The notes under the pieces were generated by a model. The model saw nothing but the letters and a program-made list of their open reading frames with translations. It ran no database searches and was not told the DNA's origin. Shown in pieces: positions 6,095 to 46,196 of a DNA stretch of 64,000 nt; position 1 is the stretch's first letter, and each line of letters begins with the position of its first letter. The DNA lies in NCBI RefSeq assembly GCF_026151205.1, contig NC_087076.1, forward strand, positions 16,389,142 to 16,453,141. The letters are read 5' to 3'. The stretch comes from Bolinopsis microptera. Taxonomy: Eukaryota. A program made the translations under genes and the position numbers.

Positions 6095-6258
6095 CACACA
6101 ATACATCATCATTGCTGAATAGGGTAAGTGCTTTAACAAATCTGTTTCGTTCGAAATTCCCTAGGTTTAGGTTTCCTTAAGCTTTACCAAAGTTTGGGTT
6201 GTATTGATATTGTATCGGTGTATTGATACTAATTTCATTACTTATCCAGAATCTGAAT

Positions 6259-7512
6259 ATGAAGTCAGAAGGTTTGCGCCTGATAGCTGCATTTCTTGCA
6301 GGGTTTCTTTTAGTTCCGCTCCTTTTTCTTTTCTTTGTACAATCTTCAAAAGAGGCAGACACAGAAGAACATGCCAATGGAATCTACAACCCGCCCCAAG
6401 ATCAAGCGTTTAATCTCAAACTCAACCCAAACAAGAAGTTCATAATCGTATTGGCAGCATTTCGGAGTGGGTCTACGTTTTTAGGAAATCTGTTCGACAG
6501 TAATCCTACGTTGCATTACATGTTTGAGCCGTTTCACAGTGCTCATATCCGGAACCTTCGTACCAGAGGTGCTCTATTCGGAGTGAGACCTGACCACACG
6601 GAGAGTGACTTGAGGATGTTGTATCTCCAGCAGATGTTACACAACTGTACCATCTACCTCACTCCATTTCCTGAAAAGCACCAGTGGTGTGGTACCGAAG
6701 AGGAACATCTACATCGCTTCAATTCGACAGAGTGCGTGAGGAAGATGTGGAAGAACGGAGTGTCACAACAAGAGATCTGTAGATACCGGAACACTACCGT
6801 GATCAAGGTTATAAGACTAGAGGATCTGTCTGATATCCTGAAAATAGCCCAGATAAGATCAGCGAATATCCAGATTATCCAGCTCCTAAGACACCCTGTG
6901 CCTTTGATGATGTCTCGACGTACTGGAGGCAAAGCTTTTATGTGGGACGACAGAACTAAAGTCGAACCCGATACTAATAATGGTAGCGACATCACTCACA
7001 GGCGAACCAAAATAGCATGGGAATCGTTTAACTACTGTAACAACCACTTGAAGGCTATGGAGCTGGTTGAAAATGATCCTTGGCTGAAAGACAGATACTT
7101 GAGAGTCACTCATCATGAAATGTCACTTAAACCTCTCGAAACTGCAGAGAAGGTTTACTCATTTATTGGGGCTACTCTAACCGATGGTATTAAAGAGTAC
7201 ATTCGAAATATAACTGAAGCCGAATCAGAAGGGTTTAGAAATGCGCCTACACATGCTTTAAATGTGTACAGGAATTCTACGGATATTGCCACAAAATGGA
7301 AGGAATTGGTCTCGGCAACGGTTAAATATCGGGACGTTTTCACCATTGAAGCTCAGTGTAAACGGATGTTTAAACCATTGATACATGAATTTTCTGTTGA
7401 CACAATACCTGACTTACAGCTGATGAAAATAAACTCAGCATTAGATGTGTTATATGACGAAATTGATTTTGAAGAATCTGATGAACCAGCTATTTCCATA
7501 GATGACAATTGA
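6259..7512 (+). CDS. Carbohydrate sulfotransferase paralog 2, intact single-exon CDS, 417 aa
   Basis: ORF 6223-7512. The homologous start MKSEGLRLIAAF is at 6259. Same 5'-PSB (FIIVLAAFRSGSTFLGNLFDSNPTLHYMFEPFH) and 3'-PB motifs. About 80% aa identity to paralog 1. Confidence 0.8.
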   Translation: MKSEGLRLIAAFLAGFLLVPLLFLFFVQSSKEADTEEHANGIYNPPQDQAFNLKLNPNKKFIIVLAAFRSGSTFLGNLFDSNPTLHYMFEPFHSAHIRNLRTRGALFGVRPDHTESDLRMLYLQQMLHNCTIYLTPFPEKHQWCGTEEEHLHRFNSTECVRKMWKNGVSQQEICRYRNTTVIKVIRLEDLSDILKIAQIRSANIQIIQLLRHPVPLMMSRRTGGKAFMWDDRTKVEPDTNNGSDITHRRTKIAWESFNYCNNHLKAMELVENDPWLKDRYLRVTHHEMSLKPLETAEKVYSFIGATLTDGIKEYIRNITEAESEGFRNAPTHALNVYRNSTDIATKWKELVSATVKYRDVFTIEAQCKRMFKPLIHEFSVDTIPDLQLMKINSALDVLYDEIDFEESDEPAISIDDN

Positions 7513-8600: not shown

Positions 8601-9206
8601 TCTTCGTTCATAAAATCATTATTTAATGCTAATGATAATATAAAACGAAAGAAAATCTTAAATTATCTACGTTTAATTCCAGACTTTGAAGATTTGAGGG
8701 CCATTGCTCTTGGTATAGTTACATTGAAGTTATAAATCATCCAGTGCTAAATTTATTTGTAAAAGCTTTGAATTGGGTACTACAACAGATACATTTTCGC
8801 TGTTTTGAAAATATATTTTGTAAATCGATTTAAATTAAAAATTTTAAATCCTCAATATAACGTCGTGTAATTAAAGCATGCTGTGTTGTAATGGACGATT
8901 TAAATGATGAATATTTATTAAAATATTCAAACGCACCCTGGACTCATAATATAGAGGAAAGAGAGCGAAATTTCGAAATAAAAGCTTAAATTTTCAAAAC
9001 ATCGACTCGTTAAACTTACACTCTCACCGCATCTGATGTGTGTAACCCGCTTTGTATTGTTAATGAACAATACGCTAACCGCTAACGTTGGATAGTAGCA
9101 CCCTGATAATCTGCTTAGTTTCTGAGTTGCATAGTTTGTATCCGGTTTAGACAATTATTGATACATTGATATATTTTGTTGTGTTCGTTGGGAACTTCCA
9201 TCAGAT

Positions 9207-10407
9207 ATGAAAACAGGAGACGTGCGACTGATAAATGCTTTTCTTACTGGTTGTGTTTTAGTTATACTGCTTTTCTTTTCCTTCATACAACCTACAAAAG
9301 ACTCTATCGAAGGGGAACATGCCGATGGAATCTACAACCCGCACCAAGATCCTGCTTTTAATCTCAAACTCAACCCAAACAAGAAGTTCATAATCGTATT
9401 GGCAGCATTTCGGAGTGGGTCTACGTTTTTAGGAAATCTGTTCGACAGTAATCCTACGTTGCAGTACATGTTTGAGCCGTTTCACAGTTCTTATATCCGG
9501 AACCTCCGTAGAGACAGGTATCTGCTCGGAGCAAGATCTGACCACACGGAGAGTGACTTGAGGATGTTGTATCTCCAGCAGATGTTACACAACTGTACAG
9601 TCTACCCCACTTTTTTCACCGAAAAATATGCCTATTGTGGTACCAAAGAGGAGAATTTACTTCGCTTCAACTCGACTGAGTGCGAAGGAAGAAAGATACC
9701 CAGATCACACCAAGAGATCTGTAGATACCGGAACACTACCGTGATCAAGGTTATAAGACTAGAGGATCTGTCTGATATCCTGAAAATAGCCCAGATAAGA
9801 TCAGCGAATGTTAAAATCATCCAGCTCCTAAGACACCCTGTGGGACATCAGGACTAAGCTCATGAACAGTAAGAACGAGATCACGGAGAGAAGGACTAAA
9901 ATGGCCTGGGAAGCGTTTAACTACTGTAACAACCATTTGAAGGCTATGGAACTGGTTGAAAGTGATCCTTGGCTGAAAGACAGATACTTGAGAGTCACTC
10001 ATCATGGAATGTCACTTAAACCTCTCGAAGCTGCAGAGAAGGTTTATTCATTTATAGGGGCTACTCTAACCGATGATATTAAAGATTACATTCGAGATAT
10101 AACCGAGGCCAAATCAGAGGGTTTTAAAAATGCACCTAAAGAGGCTTTAAATGTGTACAGGAATTCTACGGACATTGTAACTAAATGGAAGAAACTGGTC
10201 TCGGCCACAGTTAAATATTGGGACGTTTTCTCCATTGAAGCTCAATGTAAACGGATGTTTAAACCGTTGATTGATGAATTTTCTGTTGACACAATACCAG
10301 ACTTACAGCTGTTGAAAATAAACTCCGCATTAGATGAGTTATATGATCAGATTGAAGAAACTGATGAACCTATTTCCATAACCATGATAAATGAATTTAA
10401 TGGATGA
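9207..10407 (+). pseudogene. Carbohydrate sulfotransferase paralog 3, disabled by a 44-bp deletion (frameshift, premature TAA at 9855)
   Basis: ORF 9207-9857 ends RHPVGHQD*. The rest of the protein (TERRTKMAWEAFNYCNNHLKAMELV...) continues in another frame at 9862-10407. Alignment with paralog 1 shows loss of the ccctgatgatgtctagacggactggtggtaagttctttatgtgg segment. Confidence 0.7.
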
Positions 10408-11169
10408 TTATTTGCTCATCACGATCTACTCATTACTGTTTATTTTAATTCGACATTGAATGTCAACTTGAATTAGTTCATGGCCGCCTGGCCAATAACA
10501 TGGATGTTAAATTCATTCAAACGTATATTAATATCATGATATAATAATATTAAAAATTTATTTTAAACTAATAGTAATACAATGATACATTAAACTACTA
10601 CAATGTCAGGATCCCGCATAGTGCATTGGTAGTGTTGACATCATGTCGCTATTATTACCATGAAATCAATCACTTCATCGGGCATCGCGCTAAAAAGCTA
10701 GAAACTAGGATAATCGTAACTGACTTATCATTCAGCATCATAGTGGGCCCAATGCCCATGCTTGTACAGGAGTTGCATCTGCACTCGATATCTGTGTTTT
10801 GGTGACCAACAAGTCATTTGATTACATACATTTTAAGTATTTTGCATAGTAAACTAGCTTGCAAATCCACACTTTCTCTCAAGGTATATTTGTAGCTTAT
10901 TCCATTGTGTAATTTGTATGTAATTGATTGATTCAAAAGATTAAAAAATGTGGGTATTTATATCAATTCTCCTCATTCCACTTACCGCTTTTCATCCTCA
11001 CATAAATTTGTCATGCATCCACTTCCTGGAAGATTTCCACACCCAAGAGGCAGGTAGATCAGCATCTTCATGCTATCCTTTTGTAAGCCCCATAGGTTCA
11101 ACTAAACACTTGTGCCTGTGGGTGGAAGACCGCACTCTGTAACGTGGGGCAATCTTCCATGATGCCGTT

Positions 11170-11546
11170 CTTCTTCTCCCTACTTCGTCCCCCTACTTCT
11201 TCTCCCTACATCTTCTCCCTACATCTTCTTCCTACTTCTTCTCCCTACTTCTTCTCCCTACTTCTTCTCCCTACATCTTCTCCCTACTTCTTCTCCCTAC
11301 TTCTTCTCCCTACTTCTTCTCCCTACTTCTTCTCCCTACTTCTTCTCCCTTCTTCTTCTCCCTACTTCTTCTCCCTACTTCTTCTCACTACTTTTCTCCC
11401 TACTTCTTCTCCCTACTTCTTCTCCCAACTTCTTCTCCTTCTTCTTCTCCCTACTTCTTCTCCCTTCTTCTTCTCCCTACTTCTTCTCACTACTTTTTAT
11501 CCCTACTTCTTCTCCCTACTTCGTCTCCCTACTTTTTCTCCCTACT
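11170..11546. repeat. 15-bp minisatellite (TCTCCCTACTTCTTC)n, ~25 units
   Basis: Direct reading of the sequence. The + ORF 11144-11659 (SPYFFSLLLLPTS repeats) is its translation. Confidence 0.85.
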
Positions 11547-12330
11547 CCAGCAGATGTTACACAACTGTACAGTCTATCTCACTCCATTTCCTGAAAAGTA
11601 CATGTGGTGTGGCACCGAAGAGGAGCATCTACATCGCTTCAATTCGACAAAGTGCGTGAGAAATATGTGGAAGAACGGATTACGGATAGGAGTGTCACAA
11701 CAATAGGAGTGTTCTGGTAGATACCAGAACACTACCGTGATCAAGGTTATAAGACTAAAGGATCTGTCCAGATTATCCAGCTCTCCTAAGAGTAAGACTA
11801 AGACACCCTGTGGCTCTAGACGGACCGATCCAAGAGTCTTCGGTGGACAGTAGGACAACAGAAGAATCTGGCTAAAATGGCTTCGGAGGCTGTAACAACC
11901 ATTTAAAAGCTATAGAAATGGTTGAAGGTGAACCTTGGTTAAAAGACAAATACTTGAGAAACACTCACCATGAAATGTCACTTAAACCTTTTGAAACTGC
12001 GGAGAAAGTTTACTCATTTATCGGAGCTACTCTAACCGATCATATTAAAGAATGCATTTTAAATATAACTGGAGGCGAATCAGAAGGATTTTTAAATCGT
12101 CCCAAACATGCTTTCAATGTTTACAGGAATTCTACGGACATCGTCACAAAATGGAAGAAATTGTTCTCAGTCACCTTTAATACTGGGACGTTTTCTTAAT
12201 TGAAGCTCAATGTAAACGGATGTTTGAACCGTTAATAGGTCATTTTTCCGTTGATACGATACCTGTTTTTTAAAATAAATTCAGCATTAGATGAGTTATA
12301 TGACGAAATTGATTTTGGAAGAAACTGACG
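11547..12330 (+). pseudogene. Degenerate sulfotransferase copy 4 (lacks 5' half; middle and C-terminal segments with frameshifts)
   Basis: LQQMLHNCTVYLTPFPEKYMWCGTEEEHLHRFNSTKCVRNMWKNG starts exactly at the minisatellite end. ORF 11918-12199 encodes EPWLKDKYLRNTHHEMSLKPFETAEKVYSFIGATLTD... The minus ORF 11574-11858 is antisense noise. Confidence 0.6.
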
Positions 12331-13204
12331 ATCCTAATTTTAATTACGACTGATTGCAAGTAGAATGCAAAAACTATTCTGATTTATCGATTAAGATCAA
12401 AAATTTGTTAATGCTTACCCCAGACTGATAGTTTTTATGAAGAAGCTGCGGCGGAATGACAAGCTGAGCTCCGCCCAGTAAATCAATGCTTGATATACCA
12501 CCGTACTCTAGCTTCTAGAATTTCGATATCACATTTTAAATCCGATTATTCAAAAGTGGTATTATTATACTCGGCAAATTTATACAAAATAATGAATACA
12601 TTGTTTAGAAAGCATGAAGAATCGTTATAGTTATTAATCAGGGTAAGACAATGAAGAAAAAAAAATCAACATGTAATAACTATGATATGAAAGGGATATA
12701 TATATTATTATATAATATGAAGAAGAAGAGCAAATTACCAGCTGAATTCACAAAAAAGTACGGTTGACACATGACACTGGGAGTGATAAATTCAAAATAA
12801 ATCTTCAGTGCAAAAGAATAAGTTTATGAGGTGTTCACCAAACCTTTACCAATACCAGACTCCGCTCTGTCTTTATTGTAGTAGATCTATTACGTTGTCA
12901 AACATGACTACTTACGGCCGGGGCTTCATTATTGCATTTGAAAAACAAAAGTTAAAGCTTTATTATGCTTCAAGATGTTGAAAATGTATAAACTCTAACT
13001 GTCATGAAGATTCAACTAGATCAAAATGAGACCGAGCTAATAGCTGTATAGGTGAGACCGAGCTAACAGTCGACTATTAGCTCAGTCTTACCTAGTTACA
13101 TCATCATTGCCTAATTATAAAACAATTTTCTTACAACAGTGTTTTTTCAAGTTCAATCTTTCAATGTCCACGTTCGCCTTATAGAACAGAACCTTCTTTT
13201 TATC

Positions 13205-15760
13205 TTATACAGGATGTTTTTTGATGACTTGCCTTGCAACGCTTGACAGACTAGGACCATTCCCGGATGAAAACTTTGTTACTCCATCACGAATCTTTGT
13301 TCTTTCCTCTTCGACGTTTATGTTCTTGTCCATAAGGATGCAAATCTTTGGTATGAAGATGCTCAAGAGGAAGGCTGTTGAGGTGATAGAGACCACTATG
13401 GCACGCAGGATAGCTTGAATTTTTGGAGGAGAAAAACCGTATCCTGCCAGGAACATGATGGAGCACAACAACACCACAAATGTGGCACAAAATATGTTGA
13501 GGGACTCTCTGAAGTTGTGAGGAAACTTCCTCATCTTGAATGCCAGGACCAAAGTAACGAGAAACGATAGACCAGGCAAAACGATTGGGATTACCAGGGT
13601 CTTGCTATTGATGCTGGTACACCTTAGGTGCCAGGATTTGTGAGGCTCTTTCTGGTACCTTTCAAAGGCCCAGCTGGGTCCACTTCCGGTGTTGCTGTCA
13701 ATGAGAAGGATGATCACTGTTATCGCCAGGGTGAGCAAGTTAAAGGCGGTCTGGCCTGTTCTTTTGAGGAGCAGACCGAACTTTGGCGCCGAAAAACTTT
13801 GAGCAGCAGCAAAAATGTCGTAAACCTTAACACATTTATAAAGCAAGTTGGTAGATATCAAGGTAGCAAAAATTGCAAATGAGTAGTACTCCGCTGAGCA
13901 AGTTGTGGTCGAGGCTTTAAGAAGAGGAGTCAAAGCCGTAGGATACCCGATCAGCAAGCTTAATAGAACCATATAGAGATAGCCGGGGTCAGAAGCTTTG
14001 ATAACTGGCCTATCCTCATTTCTAAAGATTACAACACCGAAGACAATTACCATTGCCATACCAAGCGGCATGCTTGAAGCTCCCACGATAAAGGTTGGTG
14101 AATTCGGCTGAATGTAGATTTCTGGGGCCAAGACACAAGCAGTGTTATTCTCATTAGCTGACATGGAGGGATCACATACTTTGCAAACATTTGTGTCATT
14201 TTCGGTGCTGTATTGGTGAAGATTGCAATCTTCACATGTCCAACAGCAGGGAAGATATTGGATATTCCGATTAAAACGTCGATGGGTGCCTGGCTGGCAG
14301 GTATACGAACACGTTTTGTTGTAGCCTGACATGCTTTCCAGAAGACTTTCGTTCATCACTTCTATTCGGTCAACGAATGCCCTTCCTAGAGTCCTGAAAG
14401 TCTGTGTCTCAGTTTTGTAGACCCCAATCCTGTAGCCAGTGTTGACTGTCTTGTTGAACATCCTGATGGGTATTGTTACATTTTCTTCCAGAGTAACATT
14501 CAACGTTCGATTCTCATTCACGATTTGGTTGAACAGCTTTGTTTTGTAGTCCATTAAACATCGAGTTCCACCAGGTAAAACAGGTACTACCATATTTGTA
14601 AGAATGGCATGAAGAGATTCTAAAACCAACTTAACTCCTCCGACCATGTAAGGAATCCAGCTGGTCAGTTTGCACATCTTTGGCTCATCTCCATCTTTTG
14701 GACATCTGTAACTTTGTACCTTCTGATAGAGGTCGTCGATATAGTCTCTCTTTTTAACCTGTCTCCAATCTTTGTTTACATCTTTTAACGTTTGGTCCAT
14801 TTTGACATTGAGGAGATCTGGTAGTGGAAGTATGAGGGTGTTGTGTCCAGAGGTATTTAGGATTGCTGTATAGCCATCTAGGAAACGGTATCGTCCGTTT
14901 GATAATCCGAGTATGTAGATCTTATCTCGGAATCCTAGATTTCCGACCATCTCTTTTAGCATTGCTCTGGTTGTTGATCTAGAATTTTGAAGAATAAGTT
15001 GAACCCGCGAAGGGGTCCCGCCAGTTTCATTGTAGGTTTGTTTTATCCTTGGAATGTGATCTTTGGATGTGACATCAGTTATTCGTCCACATCCTACCTT
15101 TTTGACGTAGCTGTTGAATATGTGCTCGGCCATATCTTTAGAATATTCGTGATACCAAATGTCCATATATTGATAACCCATCTTTTCTAAGAATCGAATA
15201 GTTATTTCTGCTTCTTTGACTTCCGTGTCTATCATGGAAAATAGATTTGGATACATGCTACCTGTCATCAACTCATCATCATTGAACATATACACGAATG
15301 TGGGAATGTGGAATGATGACATGATAGCAGCAGATCTTTTGGTGTATTCTTTATTGTCGACTCCAGAAACTCCTATGACCTTCTTGTTGCTAGCAAGTGC
15401 AGCAGAGATTCTTCCTGTGACAGCTGAACTCATGCAAGTGTCATACATCTCGTATCCCAGGGTCTTGTTGAAATCCTTTTTAAATCTTTCATTTTCTTTG
15501 TCTATTACCATCCTAAGGGCGATGGCCTTCTGGATGCCATATTCCTCAATCCCAGAGTAAGAACAACTTTGAACTGGGATTTTAGTGCCGTCATCATCGT
15601 CTGTGTACTCGAGCTGGCCTATCTGGAACATTCCTCCGATGATGAAGTCTCCGTCTTTTGCAGCAATGGGGGTATCAAGATACCGTACCTGACAAACTCC
15701 CTCATCCTCACCAGCTACTCCTGGTAAAGTGAGCACCAGGAGGACAAATATTGCAAACAT
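13205..15760 (-). CDS. Class C (family 3) GPCR, intronless, copy 1: signal peptide, Venus-flytrap/ANF-receptor-like ectodomain, 9-cysteine domain, 7TM
   Basis: The listed 925-aa ORF carries a non-coding N-terminal read-through; the homologous start is MFAIFVLLVLTLPGVAG at 15760. The Cys-rich block CSYTCQPGTHRRFNRNIQYLPCCWTCEDCNLHQY..VCKVCD..TAC has 9 Cys including the CCWxC motif. There are seven hydrophobic helices, with a TM3 Cys and the TM7 motif FIPKICILM (class C PKxY-like). AATAAA signals lie 250-350 bp below the stop. Confidence 0.8.
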   Translation of the reverse strand: MFAIFVLLVLTLPGVAGEDEGVCQVRYLDTPIAAKDGDFIIGGMFQIGQLEYTDDDDGTKIPVQSCSYSGIEEYGIQKAIALRMVIDKENERFKKDFNKTLGYEMYDTCMSSAVTGRISAALASNKKVIGVSGVDNKEYTKRSAAIMSSFHIPTFVYMFNDDELMTGSMYPNLFSMIDTEVKEAEITIRFLEKMGYQYMDIWYHEYSKDMAEHIFNSYVKKVGCGRITDVTSKDHIPRIKQTYNETGGTPSRVQLILQNSRSTTRAMLKEMVGNLGFRDKIYILGLSNGRYRFLDGYTAILNTSGHNTLILPLPDLLNVKMDQTLKDVNKDWRQVKKRDYIDDLYQKVQSYRCPKDGDEPKMCKLTSWIPYMVGGVKLVLESLHAILTNMVVPVLPGGTRCLMDYKTKLFNQIVNENRTLNVTLEENVTIPIRMFNKTVNTGYRIGVYKTETQTFRTLGRAFVDRIEVMNESLLESMSGYNKTCSYTCQPGTHRRFNRNIQYLPCCWTCEDCNLHQYSTENDTNVCKVCDPSMSANENNTACVLAPEIYIQPNSPTFIVGASSMPLGMAMVIVFGVVIFRNEDRPVIKASDPGYLYMVLLSLLIGYPTALTPLLKASTTTCSAEYYSFAIFATLISTNLLYKCVKVYDIFAAAQSFSAPKFGLLLKRTGQTAFNLLTLAITVIILLIDSNTGSGPSWAFERYQKEPHKSWHLRCTSINSKTLVIPIVLPGLSFLVTLVLAFKMRKFPHNFRESLNIFCATFVVLLCSIMFLAGYGFSPPKIQAILRAIVVSITSTAFLLSIFIPKICILMDKNINVEEERTKIRDGVTKFSSGNGPSLSSVARQVIKKHPV

Positions 15761-15952
15761 TACACAATTTCGTACAATTGATATGTCATAAACATTCACC
15801 TCAACAGTCTCCCGATATCTACTATAATTGTTCTGATATTCTACGGAACCACGACATGGACAATAGAAGTATAAATGTACTATAGTTCGACAGAAAATTG
15901 CGATTGTTTGGTTATTAGGATCCTTTATCCTTCTTTTATCATACCAGTGAAG

Positions 15953-16040
15953 AAGATGTGGAAACACGGAGTGTAACAACAAGAGATCTGTAGATATCGG
16001 GACACTACCGTGATCAAGGTTATAAGACTAGAGGATCTAG
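15953..16040 (+). pseudogene. Sulfotransferase internal fragment (WKHGV.QQEICRYRDTTVIKVIRLEDL) abutting the 5' flank of GPCR copy 1
   Basis: Nucleotide identity to paralog 1 positions ~1420-1500. The same breakpoint fragment recurs at 21791-22005 and 11640-11760. Confidence 0.5.
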
Positions 16041-16203
16041 TCTTATAACCTTTTTCGGAGTTGTGCGAGATGACGATACATAAAGGCAGCAGAATTATGA
16101 GGACTACCAGATCCTGGTGGAACCTAAGCGATCCATGATATCACGACAGGCCCTAGACAGGCTAGGCTAGTAAAACACGAATTCGATTGTCATGTTTGAT
16201 TGT

Positions 16204-16277
16204 TTAGGGCTTGGGTTAGGGTTAGGGTTGTGGTTAGGGTTATTGATAGCTTCAGGGTTATGGTTAGGGTTAAGGTT
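16204..16277. repeat. Interstitial telomere-like repeat, degenerate (TTAGGG)n
   Basis: GGGCTTGGGTTAGGGTTAGGGTTGTGGTTAGGGTTATTGATAGCTTCAGGGTTATGGTTAGGGTTAAGG. Confidence 0.6.
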
Positions 16278-16360
16278 TATGTAAAACCGTTTTGTTTGGC
16301 TGCAAAACCATAAAAATCAAGGTCACATGATAATTTTTGGACTAGCAAATTAGTAAAAGC

Positions 16361-16540
16361 CTCAATACTGGGACGTTTTGTCGATTGAAGCTTAATGTAA
16401 ACGGATGTTTGAACCGTTAATAGGTCGTTTTTCCGTTGATACGATACCTGCTTTTTAAACTAAATTCAGCATTAGATGAGTTATATGACGAAATTGATCT
16501 TGGAAGAAACTGACGATCCTAATTTTAATTACGACTGTCG
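16361..16540 (+). pseudogene. Sulfotransferase 3'-terminal fragment plus its conserved ~350-bp 3' flank (to ~16900)
   Basis: Encodes ..IEA.CKRMFEPLIGRFSVDTIP.. and ..LDELYDEIDLGRN. The downstream flank CCCCAGACTGATAGTTTTTATGAAG..CTGCGGCGGAATGACAAGCTGAGCGCCG.. is shared with 12413-12700, 41447-41740 and 46205-46500. Confidence 0.5.
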
Positions 16541-16929
16541 ATTGCAAGTATAATGCAAAAACTACATATTCTGATTTATCGATTAAGATCAAAGATTTGT
16601 TAATGCTTACCCCAGACTGATAGTTTTTATGAAGAGTTGCGGCGGAATGACAAGCTGAGCGCCGTCCAGTAAATCAATGCTTGATATACCACCGTACTCT
16701 AGCTTCTAGAATTTCGATATCACATTTTAAATACGATTATTCATATATTTATGTGGTATTATTATACTCGTAAAGTTTTTTATACAAAATAACGAATACA
16801 TTGTTTAAAAAGCATAAAGAGTCGTTATAGTTAAATCAGGGTAAGACAATGAAAATGAAATAATCAATAATCAACATGTAATATCTTTAACATATGATTT
16901 AAAAGTAAAAACACATACAGTAATGTTCA

Positions 16930-18190
16930 CCTGGAGGAGGAAATGGGAATTCTCAGAACCTCCAACAGTGAACGGAACCGAAATAAGTATGCGTTATTCA
17001 ACTAAATTTCCAGGAGTAACACTCGATAGCAAACTCACGTGGAATGAACACATCAAAAATTAGTATAAAAAAGCCAAAGGCATACTCATGCAATGCAGCT
17101 GTAGTCAGACCTTCCCTGACATACGCTGCGACAATCTGGCTCAATGGTGTATCCAAAAAACATAACTTAACAATCCTAAGAAGCGTACAGCGGCTAGGAA
17201 ATATTCTCATAACAGGAGGGTTACCATCAACTCCTGGAGCAGCTCTAGACATCATCACCGGAATCGTCCCCATCGACCTGGTGATAAAAGAGGAAGCAGC
17301 AAAAGGAGCTCTTAGACTCAAATCCAACAACCACTGGATATATGAGCCGATGGTTAACAAGAAGGGCAACCTAGTCACCCATACAAAACTCAACGAACAG
17401 TTACTAAAGGCTATCAAACTCAATTCTGAAGGAGAAGATCAACAGACTAGGAAACAACTCAACCGTCTTCCAGGCCGAGACCTTTGCCTTAGGCACAGCG
17501 GCAAAAATACTGCGGGAATCTGGAACCAAAACTAGAAAAATCATCATAAATTATGATAGCCAGGAGACAATAATGGCAATGAGCAATATCAAAGTCAAAT
17601 CAAAAAGCAACAGCATAGCAATCAGTGAGCTGAACCAACTAGCAATGGACAATCAAGTCCTATTATGATGGATACCAGCTCATAAAGGCTATGATGGTAA
17701 CGAAAAGGCAGACTCTCTTGCCAAAAATGGCTCTGATAACTTGATCTGAGCCCAAGTGCAACTACCAATACCAAAAGTATTATGGAAGGGAGCGCTGCGG
17801 AGTATAAATCATCGGAAAATGAGGAAAAGATGGAGAACGTTACCCAACACTCACTTTTAACGAGTATGGAGACATAAATTCGCCAAATCAACTTGGCAAA
17901 GAGGGCACAAGAACAGCGACACAATTCTTCACTGGACATTATGAAAAAAACTAACACATTAATGAGTTCATGCCGACGGTCCCCAAAATTTGTCCACACT
18001 GTCTCATGGAAGAGGAAACAATGAACCACTTTATTGGTCAATGCCCGAAATGGTCTTACCAACGAGGAGGATACTTTGACTCCTTCTATCTCAGTGTGAC
18101 AGATATAGTGGACAAGTTCTCACTACCAAGGATCATCGGCTTCATACAAGCAACAAAACGATTTACTAAATGCAAAGAAAACAAAATTTA
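16930..18190 (+). mobile_element. 5'-truncated, degenerate I/R1-clade non-LTR retrotransposon fragment (RT C-terminal region + RNase H + terminal Cys-His finger)
   Basis: ORF 17044-17535 has VVRPSLTYAATIW..LRSVQRL..ITGGLPSTP. 17676-17745 encodes WIPAHKGYDGNEKADSLAKNGS (RNase H GxxGNExAD motif). 17997-18060 encodes CPHCLMEEETMNHFIGQCPKWSYQR. Multiple frameshifts. Confidence 0.55.
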
Positions 18191-18840
18191 AAAATGTTTT
18201 TTTCCTCGTCTTATTAATTTTACCGGGGTAAGCACAGGGCTCCAATGCTCTATCTTACAGTGGTCACGATCTTTCAATTAGTGATATTGACCACAGCCCC
18301 CTACGAGGAAGAAGATATAAAAAGGATATGAAGAAGAAGTGTAAGTTACCAGCTGAATTCACAAAAACGTACGCGTGACACTGGGAGTGATAAATTCAAA
18401 ATAAATTTTCAGTGCAAAAGAATACGTTTACGAGGTGTTCACCAAACCTTAACCAGACTCTGCTCTGTCTTAATTGTAGTAGATCTATCACGTTGTCAAA
18501 AATCATTCCTTGCGGCCAGGGCTTCATTATTGCTTTGTAATACAAAAGTATAAACCGTGCGAAAGTATGAACTGTATGAATTTTGAACTGTGTGAATTTT
18601 GCATTTCCTTTATTATGCTACCAGATCTTGAAAATTTATAAACTCTAACTGTCATGAAGATGTAACTAGATGAGACCGAGCTAATAGGTGAGACCGAGCT
18701 AACAGTCGACTATTAGCTCAGTCTTACCTAGTTACATCATTATTGCCTAATTATAAAATAATTGTCTTACAACAGTGTTTTTTCAAGTTCAATCTTTCAA
18801 TGTCCACGTTCGCCTTATAGAACAGAACCTTCTTTTTCTC

Positions 18841-21411
18841 TTATACAGGATGTTTTTTGATGACTTGCCTTGCAACGCCTGACAGACTAGGACCATTCCC
18901 GGATGAAAACTTTGTTACTCCATCACGAATCTTTGTTCTTTCCTCTTCGACGTTTATGTTCTTGTCCATAAGGATGCAAATCTTTGGTATGAAGATGCTC
19001 AAGAGGAAGGCTGTTGAGGTGATAGAGACCACTATGGCACGCAGCATAGCTTGGATTTTTGGAGGAGAAAAACCGTAGCCTGCCAGGAACATGATGGAGC
19101 ACAACAACACCACAAATGTGGCACAAAATATGTTGAGGGACTCTCTGAAGTTGTGAGGAAACTTCCTCATCTTGAATGCCAGGACCAAAGTAACGAGGAA
19201 CGATAGACCAGGCAAAACGATTGGGATTACCAGGGTCTTGCTATTGATGCTGGTACACCTTAAGTGCCATGATTTGTGAGACTCTTCCTGGTACCTTTCA
19301 AATGCCCAGCTGGGTCCACGTCCGGTGTTGCTGTCAATGAGAAGAATGATGACTGTTATCGCCAGGGTGAGCAAGTTGAAGGCGGTCTGGCCTGTTCTTT
19401 TGAGGAGCAGACCGAACTTTGGCGCCGAAAAACTTTGAGCAGCAGCAAAAATATCGTAAACCTTAACACACTTATAAAGCAAGTTGGTAGATATTAAGGT
19501 AGCAAAAATTGCAAATGAGTAGTACTCCGCTGAGCAAGTTGTGGTCGAGGCTTTAAAAAGAGGAGTCAAAGCCGTAGGATACCCGATCAGCAAGCTAAGT
19601 AGAACCATATAGAGATAGCCGGGATCAGAAGCTTTGATAACTGGCCTATCCTCGTTTCTAAAGATTACAACACCAAAGACAATTACCATTGCCATACCAA
19701 GTGGCATGCTTGAAGCTCCCACGATAAAGGTTGGTGAATTCGGCTGAATGTAGATTTCTGGGGCCAAGACACAAGCAGTGTTATTCTCATTGGCTGACAT
19801 GGAGGGATCACATACTTTGCAAACATTTGTGTCATTTTCGGTGCTGTATTGGTGAAGATTGCAATCTTCACAGGTCCAACAGCAGGGAAGATATTGGATA
19901 TTCCGATTAAAACGTCGATGGGTGCCTGGCTGGCAGGTATACGAACACGTTTTGTTGTAGCCTGACATGCTTTCCAGAAGACTTTCGTTCATCACTTCTA
20001 TTCGGTCAACGAATGCCCTTCCTAGAGTCCTGAAAGTCTGTGTCTCAGTTTTGTAGACCCCAATCCTGTAGCCAGTGTTGACTGTCTTGTTGAACATCCT
20101 GATGGGTATTGTTACATTTTCTTCCAGAGTAACATTCAACGTTCGATTCTCATTCACGATTTGGTTGAACAGCTTTGTTTTGTAGTCCATTAAACATCGA
20201 GTTCCGCCTGGTAAAACAGGTACTACCATATTTGTAAGAATGGCATGAAGAGATTCTAAAACCAACTTAACTCCTCCGACCATGTAAGGAATCCAGCTGG
20301 TCAATTTGCACATCTTTGGCTCATCTCCATCTTTTGGACATCTGTAACTTTGTACCTTCTGATAGAGGTCGTCGATATAGTCTCTCTTTTTAACCTGTCT
20401 CCAATCTTTGTTTAAATCTTTTAACGTTTGGTCCATTTTAACATTGAGGAGATCTGGTAGTGGAAGTATGAGGGTGTTGTGTCCAGAGGTATTTAGGATT
20501 GCTGTATAGCGATTTAGGAAACTGTATCGTCCGTTGGATAATCCAAGTATGTAAATCTTATCTCGGAATCCTAGATTTCCGACCATCTCTTTTAGCATTG
20601 CTCTGGTTGTTGCTGCAGAATTTTGAAGAATAAGTTGAACCCGCGAAGGGGTCCCGCCAGTTTCATTGTAGGTTTGTTTTATCCTTGGAATGTGATCTTT
20701 GGATGTGACATCAGTTATTCGTCCACATCCTACCTTTTTGACGTAGCTGTTGAATATGTGCTCGGCCATATCTTTAGAATATTCGTGATACCAAATGTCC
20801 ATATATTGATAACCCATCTTTTCTAAGAATCGAATAGTTATTTCTGCTTCTTTGACTTCCGTGTCTATCATGGAAAATAGATTTGGATACATGCTACCTG
20901 TCATCAACTCATCATCATTGAACATATACACGAATGTGGGAATGTGGAATGATGACATGATAGCAGCAGATCTTTTGGTGTATTCTTTATAGTCGACTCC
21001 AGAAACTCCTATGACCTTCTTGTTGCTAGCAAGTGCAGCAGAGATTCTTCCTGTGACAGCTGAACTCATGCAAGTGCCATACATCTCGTATCCCAGGGTC
21101 TTGTTGAAATCCTTTTTAAATCTTTCATTTTCTTTGTCTATTACCATCCTAAGGGCGATGGCCTTCTGGATGCCATATTCCTCAATCCCAGAGTAAGAAC
21201 AACTTTGAACTGGGATTTTAGTGCCGTCATCATCGTCTGTGTACTCGAGCTGGCCTATCTGGAACATTCCTCCAATGATGAAGTCTCCGTCTTTTGCAGC
21301 AATGGGGGTATCAAGATACCGTACCTGACAAACTCCCTCATCCTCACCAGCTACTCCTGGTAAAGTGAGCACCAGGAGAAAAAATATTGCAAACATTACA
21401 CAATTTTGCAC
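18841..21411 (-). CDS. Class C GPCR, intronless, copy 2 (856 aa; ~99% identical to copy 1)
   Basis: Intact ORF with the same domain order and motifs as copy 1. The start MQNCVMFAIFF allows an alternative start at the second Met. The 3' flank 18290-18840 and 5' flank 21412-21790 are also near-identical to those of copy 1. Confidence 0.85.
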   Translation of the reverse strand: MQNCVMFAIFFLLVLTLPGVAGEDEGVCQVRYLDTPIAAKDGDFIIGGMFQIGQLEYTDDDDGTKIPVQSCSYSGIEEYGIQKAIALRMVIDKENERFKKDFNKTLGYEMYGTCMSSAVTGRISAALASNKKVIGVSGVDYKEYTKRSAAIMSSFHIPTFVYMFNDDELMTGSMYPNLFSMIDTEVKEAEITIRFLEKMGYQYMDIWYHEYSKDMAEHIFNSYVKKVGCGRITDVTSKDHIPRIKQTYNETGGTPSRVQLILQNSAATTRAMLKEMVGNLGFRDKIYILGLSNGRYSFLNRYTAILNTSGHNTLILPLPDLLNVKMDQTLKDLNKDWRQVKKRDYIDDLYQKVQSYRCPKDGDEPKMCKLTSWIPYMVGGVKLVLESLHAILTNMVVPVLPGGTRCLMDYKTKLFNQIVNENRTLNVTLEENVTIPIRMFNKTVNTGYRIGVYKTETQTFRTLGRAFVDRIEVMNESLLESMSGYNKTCSYTCQPGTHRRFNRNIQYLPCCWTCEDCNLHQYSTENDTNVCKVCDPSMSANENNTACVLAPEIYIQPNSPTFIVGASSMPLGMAMVIVFGVVIFRNEDRPVIKASDPGYLYMVLLSLLIGYPTALTPLFKASTTTCSAEYYSFAIFATLISTNLLYKCVKVYDIFAAAQSFSAPKFGLLLKRTGQTAFNLLTLAITVIILLIDSNTGRGPSWAFERYQEESHKSWHLRCTSINSKTLVIPIVLPGLSFLVTLVLAFKMRKFPHNFRESLNIFCATFVVLLCSIMFLAGYGFSPPKIQAMLRAIVVSITSTAFLLSIFIPKICILMDKNINVEEERTKIRDGVTKFSSGNGPSLSGVARQVIKKHPV

Positions 21412-21514
21412 ATTTGATATGTCCTAAACATTCACCTCAACCATCAACAGTCTCCCGATCTCTACCATTGTTTTGCTATTCTACGAAACCTTGACATGGA
21501 TAAAAATTGCAATT

Positions 21515-21536
21515 GATAACCAATTGTTTGGTTATC
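21515..21536. promoter_or_regulatory. Perfect palindrome GATAACCAATTGTTTGGTTATC ~100 bp upstream of GPCR copy 2 start
   Basis: Recurs at 45451-45472, 8 bp upstream of the GPCR copy 3 ATG. Half-site copies (TTGCGATTGTTTGGTTATTAGGATCC) lie at 15895, 21740 and 45650. Confidence 0.25.
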
Positions 21537-21790
21537 AGGATCCTTTATTCTTCTATTATCACACATCCATCTGTTTCTTTCTTTGCGATTTAAAATTGAA
21601 ATCATGAGATTCTGCGGAATGACAGGCTGAGCGCCGCCCAGTAATATTGGTACACGTTCGACACATACTACTACTATAGTTCGACACGTCTAATACCACT
21701 GTTCTTTAGTCACGAAACGTGGACATTGGCAAAAATTGCGATTGTTTGGTTATTAGGATCCTTTATTCTTCTTTTATCACATCAACCACT

Positions 21791-22005
21791 GCGTGAGGAA
21801 GGTGTGGAAACACGTAGTGTTGCAACAAGAGATCTGTAGATACCGGAACACTATCATGATCAAGGTTATAAGACTAGAGGATCTGTCTGATATCTAAAAA
21901 ATAACCCAGATAAGATCAGCATGCAAATATCCAAATTATCCAGCTCCTAATAGTAAGACACCCTGTGGCTCTGGTGATGTTTAGACGGACCGATCCAAAA
22001 GTTGT
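21791..22005 (+). pseudogene. Sulfotransferase internal fragment abutting 5' flank of GPCR copy 2
   Basis: ..VRKVWKHVVLQQEICRYRNTIMIKVIRLEDLSDI..QLLIVRHPVALVMFRRTDPKVV.. with stops; homologous to paralog 1/2 codons ~180-260. Confidence 0.5.
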
Positions 22006-22073
22006 TCCAAATGCTCTAAAATCGGCACGGGTTGTCCCGATACACAAAGGTGGCTCTAAAACAGAAGTAACTA

Positions 22074-22402
22074 ATTTGACCAAAACCCATAATCATGGGT
22101 AGAGTGTACCGCTGCCAGTGTCTCTCTTTTCCAAACAAAAGGAAATGATATTAATTTGAATAACCGTCCGCAAATGCAAATTGATACCGAGAATGAAATC
22201 GGTCGCTCGCTTTTTCCAATCAATAAGCTTTATTACAATTCGTAAGCCGTAATCGAATGGAAAAAGCGAGCGACCGATTTCATTCTCGGTATCAATTTGC
22301 ATTTGCGGACGGTTATTCAAATTAATATCATTTCCTTTTGTTTGGAAAAGAGAGACACTGGCAGCGGTACACTCTACCCATGATTATGGGTTTTGGTCAA
22401 AT
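22074..22402. repeat. Large perfect palindrome / foldback: two 145-bp arms (22074-22218, 22258-22402) around a 39-bp loop
   Basis: The right arm is the exact reverse complement of the left arm. Both carry the internal sub-palindrome CCCATAATCATGGG. Confidence 0.85.
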
Positions 22403-22862
22403 ATCATCTCTTTTTGATTAAAATGTCAGGATAATTTACAAAGCCGAAATGTAAACTCATAACTTCATTAATATTTATATTAATAATTAGGAGGTAATTT
22501 CATCGATTTCGAAATTTTACCTGACTGAATATGGCACTTTTTACTCATTCAAGTTGGCATTAAATTCATATATAATTCCATTTAAATATCGCGGGAAAGC
22601 AGAATTTATTCGAAATCGTGATCACGAATGAGCAAAATTCTCACCTTTCGCACGTGCAAACTTTGAGCGGACTTTGCGTGCGCATACAATATTGAATCAC
22701 CGTAAATTTTTGCATATCAGTATTTTATATATAATTTAATAAGCAAGCAAAGTTTCAGAAGATTTCATATAGAACTTGGATCACAACGGGACTCCAAAGT
22801 TGATAAAAATGGTGAAAACAGCAATTTTCAGTAATTTTAGCAATTTTCTATCAATTTGGGCG

Positions 22863-23804
22863 TGTCCCTAATAAAAGGCTCTTTTCCTTTATATTTTGTT
22901 CAGCAAGGTGACAAGGGAAAGTACTTCAATTTGAATAAACCGTTAAGAATTGTAATTACAATATCTCAGTGTTCCTCAAATACTATGTCAATAATTCGAA
23001 TAGCATAGTTCTTTAACTATAAACATTAACGGTAAACGTCTGCTGTATTCAAACCAAAAAGTGTCCTGCCATCCAACAGGCCCACTCTTAAATATCCTTA
23101 GATAGTATAAACAATCTCCCACTCGTTTTAGCAATCCCTAAACAAATCCCAAACTATCCTTCCTATAGCCAAAACAGAGATGTAAAATTGAACTCTCTGA
23201 TAACCAAAACAGAGATGTTAAAATAAACTTTCTGTTTCCCTAAAATTTTCTGCCCTTAACAATATCTTTAACTATCCTCCTATAGCCAAAATAGAGTTGT
23301 TAAACTGAACTCTTTGATAACCAAAACAGAGATGTTAAAATAAACTTTCTGTTTCCCTAAAACTCTCTGCACTACCCTGCTGTACTAAATGTCGTACACT
23401 AATAAATGCCCTAAAATACTACGGTAAAATACTGTTTAATGTCTAGTACTAAAACTGCTAAAACGAGTATATAACATCCCCACGTGTGCAACTTTTCGAT
23501 TTTCAACTTTAAAACTAGCCTATAACACAATTTAGACCTTTAGAAAGCACAATCGAGCTCCACAACTCAAGGGATGGCCCAACACCAGAGAATACTAATT
23601 CACAACTTTTGTATTTTTATAAAATTATTCTTCAAAAAAGCACTAACTTCAATAGCAAATATCTTTATGAAGGAGCAAGGTAGGAAAATTTTCCGGTAGA
23701 TTTTCAGAATGCTTGAACAATTATCTAAGGTGAAAATGTCCTCAGATTTTGAATAAAATTACTCCTTAATGGTTTAAAATCGATTTGAAAAGTTGTTATT
23801 TTGT
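22863..23804. repeat. LTR (3' LTR if element is minus-oriented)
   Basis: See parent element; this is the downstream copy of the direct-repeat pair (3' LTR if the element is minus-oriented). Confidence 0.55.
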
Positions 23805-24280
23805 AAAATACTACGGTAAAATACTGTTTAATGTCTAGTACTAAAACTGCTAAAACGAGTATATAACATATCCTCCCCACAAAATTTTGTGGAAGTTCTC
23901 CCGTTGCAATTGCAATGGATAACTTTACAAATTCTAATATATATCAAATCTACCTACAAAGTGTTTTTTAAAACCCACATAAACTTGAAAAAAAAATGTG
24001 TCTCTCTTGCTATTAAAACTGGCACCAAAGCTGCCCAAAATCAATGTCATCACCAAGTTGAAAATAACCATGTTCTAATTGATGTCAAGATTAGTATTAC
24101 TTTAAGTAAAGTGTTGTTATGATTCAAACAAGGTTGTTCTCTTCAAATCCCTGATACCGTGATTTTACTGTAAATACTTTAACAAAATACCATTGTGCAC
24201 AAATTATCAAATATATAACGCAAATTACCGTTCCAGTCTATATGACTTTAATTTAGTCATTTCCGACATTTCTCCTCTGA

Positions 24281-25150
24281 TTAAACATACTTCGGTTTAT
24301 TCTTTCTCGGTCTGAGTCCATACTTTCTCCTCGGATCTCTGCCGTCTTCTTCACGACTTATGTCAGCAAGAGTAAGTCCTCTACTATCTATTTCTCCGAA
24401 TTGCATATTTCCCTCTCTGCTCGGTCCAGCAGTTGCAGCCGCTACTTCCGGACTAGAGTCAATGTTTTGAGATTGACTTGAATCTAGTGCATCGTGAAAA
24501 GATTCGGTGGTATCTGCACTTAGATTTAATTGTGGATCTTCTTCCTGACGCGGTACATCGTTGAGCGATGAGTTTACTATCGTGTCATCCAATCCTCGTT
24601 CCTCCTCTTCCACCACAATGGCCGGATCTCCGCTCCCAACTTCAGTTTGTGGTACATCATTTCCAGAACTTGTGAGATTCACTGGTGCTGACGCTTTTCC
24701 TCCACTTTTACTGATCTTAGATGAGGGACAAGGAATTCCTTGATCCCTCTTCTTCTTCCGACTTCTCGTGATGATGTGATAATCATCTGAATCATCTGAA
24801 TCACTATCAGTGACCAGGCTCACTTCACTCATGTTGCCTTCACTTTCCCCGGAACAACCGTTGGGAAATCCCACAGCCGCTCCAGGAACCTTGGTGAGTG
24901 GTTCTCCCCCTTTATAAGGTTTCATCTTCGTGATGCTGGCTTGTATCACGTTGCGACCCCCACGGTTGCGACCCCCACGGTCGTTTCGTCCTGACGATAC
25001 AGGGGGAGCCGCGCACTCCGTGCGCGGCGGGTCATACAACGTATGACAAATGCTGGCCACATTCTTCTCCTGTCCCACCTGTATTTCCATTGTACTGTCG
25101 GTTGAATTCTCCACCGGATCCTCTTCTCCTCCAGCAGTTAGCTCGTACAT
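24281..25150 (-). CDS. Second ORF downstream of gag: acidic/Ser-rich 289-aa protein with basic patch (TRSRKKKRD), unknown function
   Basis: Open frame lying between gag and the downstream direct repeat; low complexity; no recognisable protease/RT/integrase motifs. Confidence 0.3.
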   Translation of the reverse strand: MYELTAGGEEDPVENSTDSTMEIQVGQEKNVASICHTLYDPPRTECAAPPVSSGRNDRGGRNRGGRNVIQASITKMKPYKGGEPLTKVPGAAVGFPNGCSGESEGNMSEVSLVTDSDSDDSDDYHIITRSRKKKRDQGIPCPSSKISKSGGKASAPVNLTSSGNDVPQTEVGSGDPAIVVEEEERGLDDTIVNSSLNDVPRQEEDPQLNLSADTTESFHDALDSSQSQNIDSSPEVAAATAGPSREGNMQFGEIDSRGLTLADISREEDGRDPRRKYGLRPRKNKPKYV

Positions 25151-25235
25151 GTCCGGTCTTGTTGCAATTCCAGCACGTTATGTTCTTGTAACTCCATCCC
25201 CCGTCTCGTTCTCTATTGTGTACTGATCTGGGTCT

Positions 25236-26174
25236 CTAGTTTCTGCTCCTTCCTCGCCATTTGTCCCGATTCTCACCGGACCAAGATCTCGATCTGCCAT
25301 CCCCCGTAGGTCTCTGATAAGTAGTTTCTTCTCGCTCCTCCCGACTATTTTGCCTCGAAAATGAGGGGTAGTGAATGGTTGGCTTGTCAGAAAATGCCGT
25401 TTGTTTCATAATCGAAGAAACAGGAATTTCTCTATCGTTCTCATTCATCATCTTCTCAACGCCTTCTATTTTCTCTGCCAATTTCACTGCTTCCTCAAAT
25501 GAAGCAAAGCTAGCTACATTGAGCTGCTGTATCATATTTTTGCTCCTCACTCCTCGTAAAAGAGCCAAAAGACAATTGTCTTCCGCCACTGTTACATCCA
25601 AGTAAGCTACATTCGACTTCGCCCTCAATCGAAAAACGTACTCACCTATATCTTCTCCTTGCCGCTGACGACAGTTAAGCAGTTCGTTCTTAAGTGCGGT
25701 AGCTTCGTTGCCATAGATGGCTCGCTTGTAGAGCGTACAAAAAAGCTCAGGATCTTTTCTCTCCCTATCACTCAGTTTGACTGCCCTCAGTACCGAATAG
25801 GTTTTGTCGTCCACACTTTGGAGCAAGTGCTCATACAGTAATGGACTCTTCATCCTGGTTATTCTCACGTATGAGAGAAATCTCTCACAGAACATGGAAA
25901 AATCTTCTCCTTTTTCAAACGTCTTCAATTTAGCTGCTCGGGATAATTTTGAATTAAAAATTTTCCCTGATCCGTCATGATCATTTTCACTCTCGTTATC
26001 CTCCAAATCCGAATCGCCCGCTTCGAATAACTCTTTTTTAATCTTTTTCTCCTGCACTTTTAGCTCTTCCAGCGTGGTTCTGATTTTCTCTCGTTCAGCT
26101 TTGATTTTCTCCAACTCCTCTTTCGCTTCAGCCGCTGCTGCAGCTTGTTCTTCCTTGTCACTGCCAATAGTCAT
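25236..26174 (-). CDS. Retrotransposon Gag-like capsid protein (Ty3/gypsy-type Retrotrans_gag fold), 312 aa
   Basis: An N-terminal coiled coil (EELEKIKAEREKIRTTLEELKVQEKKIKKEL) is followed by the core FEKGEDFSMFCERFLSYV...LYEHLLQSV...LLNCRQRQGEDIGEYVFRLRAK. This fits the F.G..F..W...L.Q.g.SV.EY..RF pattern of LTR-retrotransposon Gag. Confidence 0.6.
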   Translation of the reverse strand: MTIGSDKEEQAAAAAEAKEELEKIKAEREKIRTTLEELKVQEKKIKKELFEAGDSDLEDNESENDHDGSGKIFNSKLSRAAKLKTFEKGEDFSMFCERFLSYVRITRMKSPLLYEHLLQSVDDKTYSVLRAVKLSDRERKDPELFCTLYKRAIYGNEATALKNELLNCRQRQGEDIGEYVFRLRAKSNVAYLDVTVAEDNCLLALLRGVRSKNMIQQLNVASFASFEEAVKLAEKIEGVEKMMNENDREIPVSSIMKQTAFSDKPTIHYPSFSRQNSREEREETTYQRPTGDGRSRSWSGENRDKWRGRSRN

Positions 26175-26229
26175 CTATGCTCAAATCACTTCGAGGGTAT
26201 TAACCAATTGATTAATCAGGCTCCAGTTG

Positions 26230-27164
26230 ATAAAAGGCTCTTTTCCTTTATATTTTGTTCAGCAAGGTGACAAGGGAAAGTACTTCAATTTGAATAAACC
26301 GTTAAGAATTGTAATTACAATATCTCAGTGTTCCTCAAATACTATGTCAATAATTCGAATAGCATAGTTCTTTAACTATAAACATTAACGGTAAACGTCT
26401 GCTGTATTCAAACCAAAAAGTGTCCTGCCATCCAACAGGCCCACTCTTAAATATCCTTAGATAGTATAAACAATCTCCCACTCGTTTTAGCAATCCCTAA
26501 ACAAATCCCAAACTATCCTTCCTATAGCCAAAACAGAGATGTAAAATTGAACTCTCTGATAACCAAAACAGAGATGTTAAAATAAACTTTCTGTTTCCCT
26601 AAAATTTTCTGCCCTTAACAATATCTTTAACTATCCTCCTATAGCCAAAATAGAGTTGTTAAACTGAACTCTTTGATAACCAAAACAGAGATGTTAAAAT
26701 AAACTTTCTGTTTCCCTAAAACTCTCTGCACTACCCTGCTGTACTAAATGTCGTACACTAATAAATGCCCTAAAATACTACGGTAAAATACTGTTTAATG
26801 TCTAGTACTAAAACTGCTAAAACGAGTATATAACATCCCCACGTGTGCAACTTTTCGATTTTCAACTTTAAAACTAGCCTATAACACAATTTAGACCTTT
26901 AGAAAGCACAATCGAGCTCCACAACTCAAGGGATGGCCCAACACCAGAGAATACTAATTCACAACTTTTGTATTTTTATAAAATTATTCTTCAAAAAAGC
27001 ACTAACTTCAATAGCAAATATCTTTATGAAGGAGCAAGGTAGGAAAATTTTCCGGTAGATTTTCAGAATGCTTGAACAATTATCTAAGGTGAAAATGTCC
27101 TCAGATTTTGAATAAAATTACTCCTTAATGGTTTAAAATCGATTTGAAAAGTTGTTATTTTGTT
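26230..27164. repeat. LTR (5' LTR if element is minus-oriented)
   Basis: See parent element; this is the upstream copy of the direct-repeat pair (5' LTR if the element is minus-oriented). Confidence 0.55.
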
Positions 27165-45443: not shown

Positions 45444-45450
45444 TGCAATT

Positions 45451-46195: not shown

Positions 46196-46196
<1 letters not shown>

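Follow-up and report, generated by a model that had tools for sequence, protein, structure and literature searches.

Three single-coding-exon class C receptor genes of the ctenophore Bolinopsis microptera, very probably derived from tandem triplication of a block that carries part of a sulfotransferase pseudogene

The lobate ctenophore Bolinopsis microptera carries, within a 64,000-nucleotide stretch of a 23.6-Mb chromosome (contig NC_087076.1, positions 16,389,142 to 16,453,141, designated "the window" below), three intact genes for class C G protein-coupled receptors (GPCRs), each with a single coding exon, beside a tandem array of sulfotransferase (ST) genes. These three co-orthologous genes very probably originated by ordinary tandem triplication of a block of about 5.6 kb which contained, besides the receptor gene, part of an ST pseudogene. 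The numbering of the ST copies runs from ST1 on the left to ST7 on the right, and amino acid (aa) positions within them are given on ST2; they are named sulfotransferases solely from their matches to the Pfam profiles Sulfotransfer_1/3, and a sequence search of the PDB with ST2 gave no match. The receptors are already annotated in RefSeq as separate models on one chromosome under the name "metabotropic glutamate receptor 4/5-like". The open reading frame (ORF) of copy 2, read from the first ATG, is identical to the B. microptera model XP_063680103.1 and that of copy 3 to XP_063680104.1, and copy 1 shares a 90% cluster with a third model, XP_063679972.1. Beyond these three, the protein collection searched contained no further copy with more than 90% aa identity, and the next-closest B. 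microptera paralog (P0004), which is 77% identical, is encoded on another chromosome.

The coding sequences (CDSs) are located on the minus strand at 13205-15760 (copy 1, 851 aa), 18841-21396 (copy 2, 851 aa, with the RefSeq start MFAIF), and 42873-45443 (copy 3, 856 aa). An earlier note on this DNA, made from the sequence alone, had listed three complete genes; all three ORFs are indeed uninterrupted, and only the end given for copy 2 (21411) has to be corrected, as it corresponds to an upstream GTG and the RefSeq start gives 21396. The encoded proteins are class C GPCRs with a 7tm_3 domain, a nine-cysteine (9-Cys) domain, and a Venus-flytrap-type ectodomain, as the same note had described, and all of them begin with a signal peptide. 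The 7tm_3 profile (PF00003) is matched in all three copies with an E-value of ~1e-33 and 115-117 bits (cut-off 33.5), and ANF_receptor is matched in part (profile positions 4-122 of 353) with 26-32 bits (cut-off 25.4). Of the profiles proposed earlier for checking, only NCD3G remained under its cut-off (30.8 versus 38.9 bits), though the nine cysteine residues are all present (positions 489, 493, 510, 511, 514, 517, 531, 534, and 547), including the motif CCWTC, and are invariant or nearly so across 23 homologs. The motif in the seventh transmembrane helix (TM7) reads PKIC and is thus PKxY-like. In a phmmer search of the PDB, aa 486-828, which comprise the 9-Cys domain and the seven-transmembrane (7TM) region, matched the metabotropic glutamate receptors (mGluRs) 5, 4, and 7 and CaSR with E-values of 1e-28 to 1e-23, and the ectodomain matched weakly. 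An AlphaFold2 (AF2) model based on an alignment of 23 sequences contains seven predicted helices between aa 560 and 815; its predicted local distance difference test (pLDDT) score is 70-90 across most of the ectodomain and the 7TM region and below 50 in the 9-Cys domain (aa 487-550) and at both termini. Foldseek aligned this model with full-length CaSR and mGluR5 over ~820-860 columns (E ~1e-30, 18-20% identity). The three genes presumably encode working dimeric class C receptors.

The array is composed of three head-to-tail units, designated A, B, and C, which each consist of a mid-ST pseudogene, an ST 3′ flank, the minus-strand GPCR gene, and the GPCR 5′ flank. The unit size is ~5.6 kb, and the third unit has been swollen to ~24 kb by insertions of long interspersed nuclear elements (LINEs) and of elements resembling those with long terminal repeats (LTRs). 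Self-blastn and tblastn revealed collinear homology in all three units for the ST 3′ half, the ST flank, the GPCR 3′ flank, the CDS, and the 5′ flank; 12715-15944 matches 18326-21564, and 13074-15756 matches 42736-45424. The shared cassette with flanks postulated in the earlier note is therefore real, and its further statements that the 3′ side adjoins a conserved ST 3′ flank and that the receptor gene was co-amplified in tandem with an ST fragment beside the ST array agree with the collinear units, in all of which the ST 3′ flank meets the 3′ side of the GPCR (~12700, 16890|18314, and 41740). This ST 3′ flank was considered as a general feature of the ST array, which was rejected, as self-blastn found it in ST4 to ST7 and not in ST1 to ST3.

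At the ancestral left border, unit A starts with ST4, a 5′-truncated pseudogene on the plus strand (11545-12354, ST2 aa 135 to the end) with a ~330-bp 3′ flank to 12700. A low-complexity tandem repeat of ~400 bp (11144-11546, internal copies 90-92% identical) stands in place of the 5′ third of ST4. The 3′ flank of GPCR copy 1 (12701-13204) contains two minus-strand AATAAA motifs (12872 and 12959). The 5′ flank of this copy (15761-15947, minus strand) has become shorter through a deletion between two occurrences of a ~60-bp motif, both of which are retained in the 5′ flank of copy 2 (21397-21789, minus strand). Unit B begins at 15948 with the pseudogene ST5 and its 3′ flank (plus strand, to 16890, delimited by blastn, tblastn, and boundary alignment). 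ST5 consists of two pieces, aa ~168-202 at 15948-16047 and aa 368-416 at 16363-16501, and its middle is replaced by a telomere-repeat-like insert (GGGTTAGGGTTAGGGTTGTGGTTAGGG...) at 16150-16362, which is absent from units A and C. Between the ST flank and the 3′ flank of copy 2 (18315-18840, minus strand, self-blastn and boundary alignment) lies an insertion of 1.4 kb specific for unit B (16891-18314), which is single-copy within the window and contains an ORF (17044-17535) without Pfam match. In unit C, tblastn located aa 166-255 of ST6 at 21775-22057 and aa 252-446 at 35816-36388, both on the plus strand, with the start of the 3′ flank reaching to 36475; the two parts belong to a single ST6 pseudogene, into which 13.8 kb of transposable elements have been inserted. 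According to the boundary alignment, the remainder of the ST 3′ flank (to ~41740) and then the 3′ flank of GPCR copy 3 occupy 41443-42872, the latter with an extra copy-3-specific segment at ~42000-42736. The ancestral 5′ flank of copy 3 (45444-45802, minus strand) is followed by the ST7 remnant (45803-46517, plus strand), which comprises the last ~23 codons and a ~330-bp 3′ flank, is split by a small transposable element described below, and represents the ancestral right border. An NDUFAF7-like exon (47196-48113) is located to the right of ST7.

Evidence for tandem duplication comes from the junction between GPCR upstream sequence and ST sequence, designated J. Alignment of the 5′ flanks showed that copies 1 and 2 pass from GPCR upstream sequence into ST at the same nucleotide position, at ~15948 (J1) and ~21790 (J2), the ST side reading ...ECVRKMWKNGVSQQEICRYR..., and that J is present only at these two internal unit boundaries. 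At the left end of the array, the homology of ST4 extends ~95 bp 5′ of the J position, to 11545. At the right end, the 5′ flank of copy 3 does not stop at the J position (45698) but runs on into further upstream sequence, which is partly common to the single-copy locus of a related ctenophore (GCCATTTAATTGGTRATAGTT.GGAGGTCA), and next meets a different ST remnant close to the ST stop codon, from ~45803. No trace of J was detected at copy 3 or at the single-copy locus. The claim that the cassette always abuts the same ST breakpoint thus holds for copies 1 and 2 and fails for copy 3, and the fragment "at 11640", which had been counted as a further case broken at the same place, lies 3′ of copy 1 and retains ST homology to 11545. 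The cassette is bordered by the ST 3′ flank on one side and by mid-ST sequence on the other, which is a circular permutation; such permuted borders are the signature of a tandem-duplication junction and not of a split insertion target. The occurrence of J twice inside the array, with both outer borders extending beyond it, matches the pattern expected when one tandem duplication is succeeded by another. We interpret J as a novel junction made by tandem duplication.

The single-copy state is represented by a locus on an ENA contig of the related ctenophore (L006), whose receptor (P0002) is 91% identical to copy 3. Its order is NDUFAF7, ST7 remnant, a transposable element, one intact GPCR gene, ST flank, an ST pseudogene designated STx, and the orthologs of ST3, ST2, and ST1. 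By synteny, ST4 is orthologous to STx, the left flank of which matches 10961-11130 of the window, and the ST7 remnant stands next to NDUFAF7 in both species. The synonymous divergence (dS) between the paralogs is 0.051 for copies 1 and 2 and 0.084 between either of these and copy 3 (0.05-0.09 across estimates), which is below the dS of 0.126-0.143 to the L006 ortholog. The substitution-only divergence (K) between the units is 0.07-0.13 in the ST and 3′ flanks and 0.10-0.17 in the short 5′ flank segments and is thus comparable to the synonymous divergence. Also in the non-coding flanks, the units are closer to one another (K 0.07-0.13) than to L006 (gapped identity ~76-78%). Since flanks and synonymous sites are of similar age and the paralog dS is below that to L006, whole units were duplicated, most simply after the species split. 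The ratio of nonsynonymous to synonymous divergence (dN/dS) is 0.17 for copies 1 and 2 and 0.38-0.45 against copy 3; together with the intactness of all ORFs, these values indicate purifying selection on the three CDSs.

The following course of events would account for the present arrangement. In the ancestral state, a single minus-strand GPCR gene would have been convergent with the already decaying STx, the terminal member of a tandem ST array, with the small remnant ST7 and NDUFAF7 on the other side. In a first step, the segment from mid-STx (~aa 166) to ~190-380 bp upstream of the GPCR start codon would have been duplicated head to tail, creating J. A second round would then have duplicated the unit so that J became present twice, most simply through unequal crossing-over between the two units. 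Finally, LINE, LTR-like, and miniature inverted-repeat transposable element (MITE) insertions and small deletions would have remodelled the units. The gene structures, the domain content, the unit boundaries, the identity of J1 and J2, the single-copy ortholog, and the divergence estimates are demonstrated directly; the order and the mechanism of the two duplication steps are what we infer here, as are expression and receptor function.

Three observations weigh against this course of events as a complete account. First, the telomere-like insert of ST5 is 83% identical to a segment of L006 (14305-14481), where it lies inside STx at different ST coordinates; as it is common to both, part of the array could predate the species split. 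Second, the GPCR gene was already bracketed in its ancestral state by ST-derived sequence (the STx flank and the ST7 remnant), which implies an older rearrangement of the ST array. Third, the divergence between copies 1 and 2 is slightly higher in the flanks (K 0.07-0.10) than at synonymous sites (0.05), so that some gene conversion or constraint on synonymous sites may have been at work. The first and third of these points also speak for an older array that existed before the split from the L006 species, which then would have lost copies by unequal crossing-over, the copies in B. microptera being homogenised by gene conversion. A further argument for such an origin is provided by an additional GPCR pseudogene in the ST array of L006 (17252-18528), internally deleted, located between the ST3 and ST2 orthologs, and inverted with respect to the intact GPCR gene of this locus. 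This pseudogene, however, is closest to L006's own GPCR (93.6%) and therefore represents an independent duplication; its presence in the ST array suggests that the region rearranges recurrently. As, moreover, the unit flanks resemble one another more than their L006 counterpart and L006 lacks any trace of J, we regard an array older than the species split as improbable.

Still less credible is the proposal of the earlier note, according to which a processed copy of a multi-exon class C GPCR gene was inserted once into an ST paralog and the resulting composite was then amplified. The CDSs are intronless, the window contains LINEs with APE and reverse transcriptase (RT) domains that seem to have been active recently, and ST-derived sequence is found on both sides of the GPCR even in the single-copy state, all of which would fit this proposal. 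However, no run of at least eight T residues (plus strand) was present at or near the cassette 3′ boundary of copies 1 and 2, and no A/T run of this length was common to the three copies, so that a poly(A) remnant is not recognizable. Likewise, in copies 2 and 3 no 8-mer that could derive from a target-site duplication (TSD) recurs at both boundaries, and in copy 1 only low-complexity GAAGAAGA does. The permuted borders and the absence of J from copy 3 and from L006 argue against a single insertion into an ST paralog.

The absence of introns is not peculiar to this locus. In Mnemiopsis, the homologs P0008 (64% identity) and P0014 (59%) are encoded at unrelated loci with gene spans of exactly 3 x aa + 3; the single-exon gene of P0014 lies within an intron of an oppositely oriented aquaporin (MIP) gene (L003, 8416-22566). 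Another ctenophore assembly contains two tandem single-ORF paralogs, and two more distant relatives (P0016 and P0017, 46% identity), the former on Tara Oceans metagenome scaffolds, are full-length single ORFs as well. No intron-bearing parent was found among the relatives whose locus was fetched, every one of which is an uninterrupted ORF (P0008 and P0014 from Mnemiopsis; P0012, P0016, and P0017 from ENA). Relatives at unrelated, non-ST loci are thus also single ORFs, which makes intronlessness a trait of the clade that dates no event here, and the ST genes of the window are single-exon, too. The single-exon state may go back to an ancient retroposition in the ancestor of the clade. Compared with processed retrogenes, the Bolinopsis genes are alike in the intronless CDS and the LINEs nearby and differ in the lack of a poly(A) remnant and of a TSD, in flanks that, including the upstream part, are common to the ortholog, and in belonging to an intronless clade. 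Independent retro-insertions at one hotspot were also considered and rejected, as kilobases of non-transcribed flank, with ST pseudogene sequence among them, are common to the copies.

Marine invertebrates can be highly heterozygous, and copies 1 and 2, whose CDSs are 98.2% identical, might in principle be two haplotypes placed in tandem by the assembly. This can be given hardly any credence, since units A and B differ by the 1.4-kb insertion, the ~320-bp ST replacement, a ~170-bp deletion in the 5′ flank, and 7-10% flank divergence, J must exist at least once regardless, and RefSeq has three separate models on one chromosome.

With tandem triplication as the preferred origin of the genes, the question of what kind of receptors they encode can be approached from their relatives. 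An exhaustive profile search yielded ~36 representative clusters (at 50% identity) with strong matches of at least 180 bits, most of which included ectodomain regions in addition to the 7TM region. Below these, the scores level off among class C proteins in general, which reached at most 172 bits and were matched mainly in the cysteine-rich and 7TM region. A second homolog search with the alignment, which was word-indexed, gave no additional proteins, and the literature searched is silent on the exon structure of ctenophore class C GPCRs and on tandem arrays of their genes. Orthologs of the mGluR classes I-IV were not found in ctenophores in an earlier study (Ramos-Vicente et al. 2018, PMC6307864). 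In mGluRs, a Ser/Thr pair holds the α-carboxylate (motifs GPGSS and SAT; Ser165 and Thr188 in mGluR1). A weak stretch (i-Evalue 190) of the phmmer alignment with mGluR5 pairs GPGSSS with GVDNKV and YSATS with YLFND of the Bolinopsis receptors, which places GVDNK and LFN opposite the two motifs, and the Ser/Thr pair appears to be missing. Candidate pocket residues that do not vary within the clade include D140 and N165 (copy 3 numbering). Because of the separate clade in the profile search, the cited study, and the Ser/Thr positions, which appear not to be conserved in the weak alignment, the RefSeq name "mGluR4/5-like" is to be read as a similarity label, which is probably misleading with respect to the ligand.

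In their architecture, the three receptors resemble mGluR, CaSR, T1R, V2R, and OlfC proteins, with which they share the flytrap ectodomain, the 9-Cys domain with CCWxC, 7tm_3, the PK motif in TM7, and the full-length predicted fold. They differ from the solved class C receptors by an identity of only 18-20% and by their single-exon CDS. The genomic arrangement is reminiscent of vertebrate V2R/OlfC and olfactory receptor clusters, which likewise consist of head-to-tail units with non-coding flanks and a hitch-hiking neighbour fragment and show a recurrent novel junction, recent copies, and purifying selection; the difference is that only three copies are present in Bolinopsis. A chemoreceptor function of the three receptors is speculation. 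It is likewise a doubtful extrapolation that the genes belong to an ancestrally intronless clade, recorded to date only in ctenophore genomes and in contigs of marine metagenomes, whose flytrap ectodomain would be of a type of its own with no mGluR-like binding of amino acids, whose members would diversify by local tandem duplication as environmental (chemosensory) receptors, and whose single-exon state would derive from one ancient retroposition.

The remainder of the ST array lies to the left of the receptor genes and comprises, in plus-strand order, ST1 (802-2172) and ST2 (6223-7512), both delimited by self-blastn and tblastn, and ST3 (9207-10407), which is disrupted. ST3 falls into two ORFs, with a frameshift or deletion around 9845, and is therefore probably a pseudogene; the orthologous ORF of L006 (15569-16846, 425 aa) is intact. 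Outside the array, 53886-54381 is occupied by a long near-perfect trinucleotide/hexanucleotide microsatellite, which on either strand is read as ORFs encoding (TTI)n or (VVI)n.

Several transposable elements are located within the array. The cluster inside ST6 (22058-35815, self-blastn and domain matches) contains two direct repeats of 941 bp that are 99.8% identical (22871-23811 and 26230-27170), with ORFs at 24281-25150 and 25236-26174 (minus strand), both without Pfam match, between them. The arrangement resembles a young non-autonomous element of the LTR type; in L006, too, a portion of the repeat is contiguous with its right flank (8660-9627). The same cluster includes an RT fragment (27837-28909) and a LINE on the minus strand (29941-34711) with GDSL, APE, and RT domains, the GDSL-esterase ORF of which is located at 33209-33982. 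A second LINE (36943-41061, plus strand; ORF1, APE, RT) has been inserted into the 3′ flank of ST6, and both LINEs are largely intact non-LTR retrotransposons. The element that splits the ST7 remnant is MITE-like, 374 bp in length (45822-46195), and flanked by an apparent 7-bp TSD (GTTAGAT). Its terminal inverted repeats (GGG..GGTACCAATGGCATAAA) are composed of a G-run and GTACCAATGGCATAAA, and its right arm contains a C homopolymer of 59 nucleotides.

The practical value of this locus is limited, as it represents an ordinary triplication of annotated genes, and its interest is modest and lies in the little-studied clade of ctenophore receptors to which they belong. It offers a clean and datable tandem triplication in a ctenophore for which the junction, the ancestral borders, and a single-copy ortholog are at hand, and it flags the label "mGluR4/5-like" as probably misleading for a clade-specific family of single-exon class C receptors. 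Should the receptors turn out to be sensory, they would become candidate members of the chemoreceptor repertoire of ctenophores, which is poorly known.

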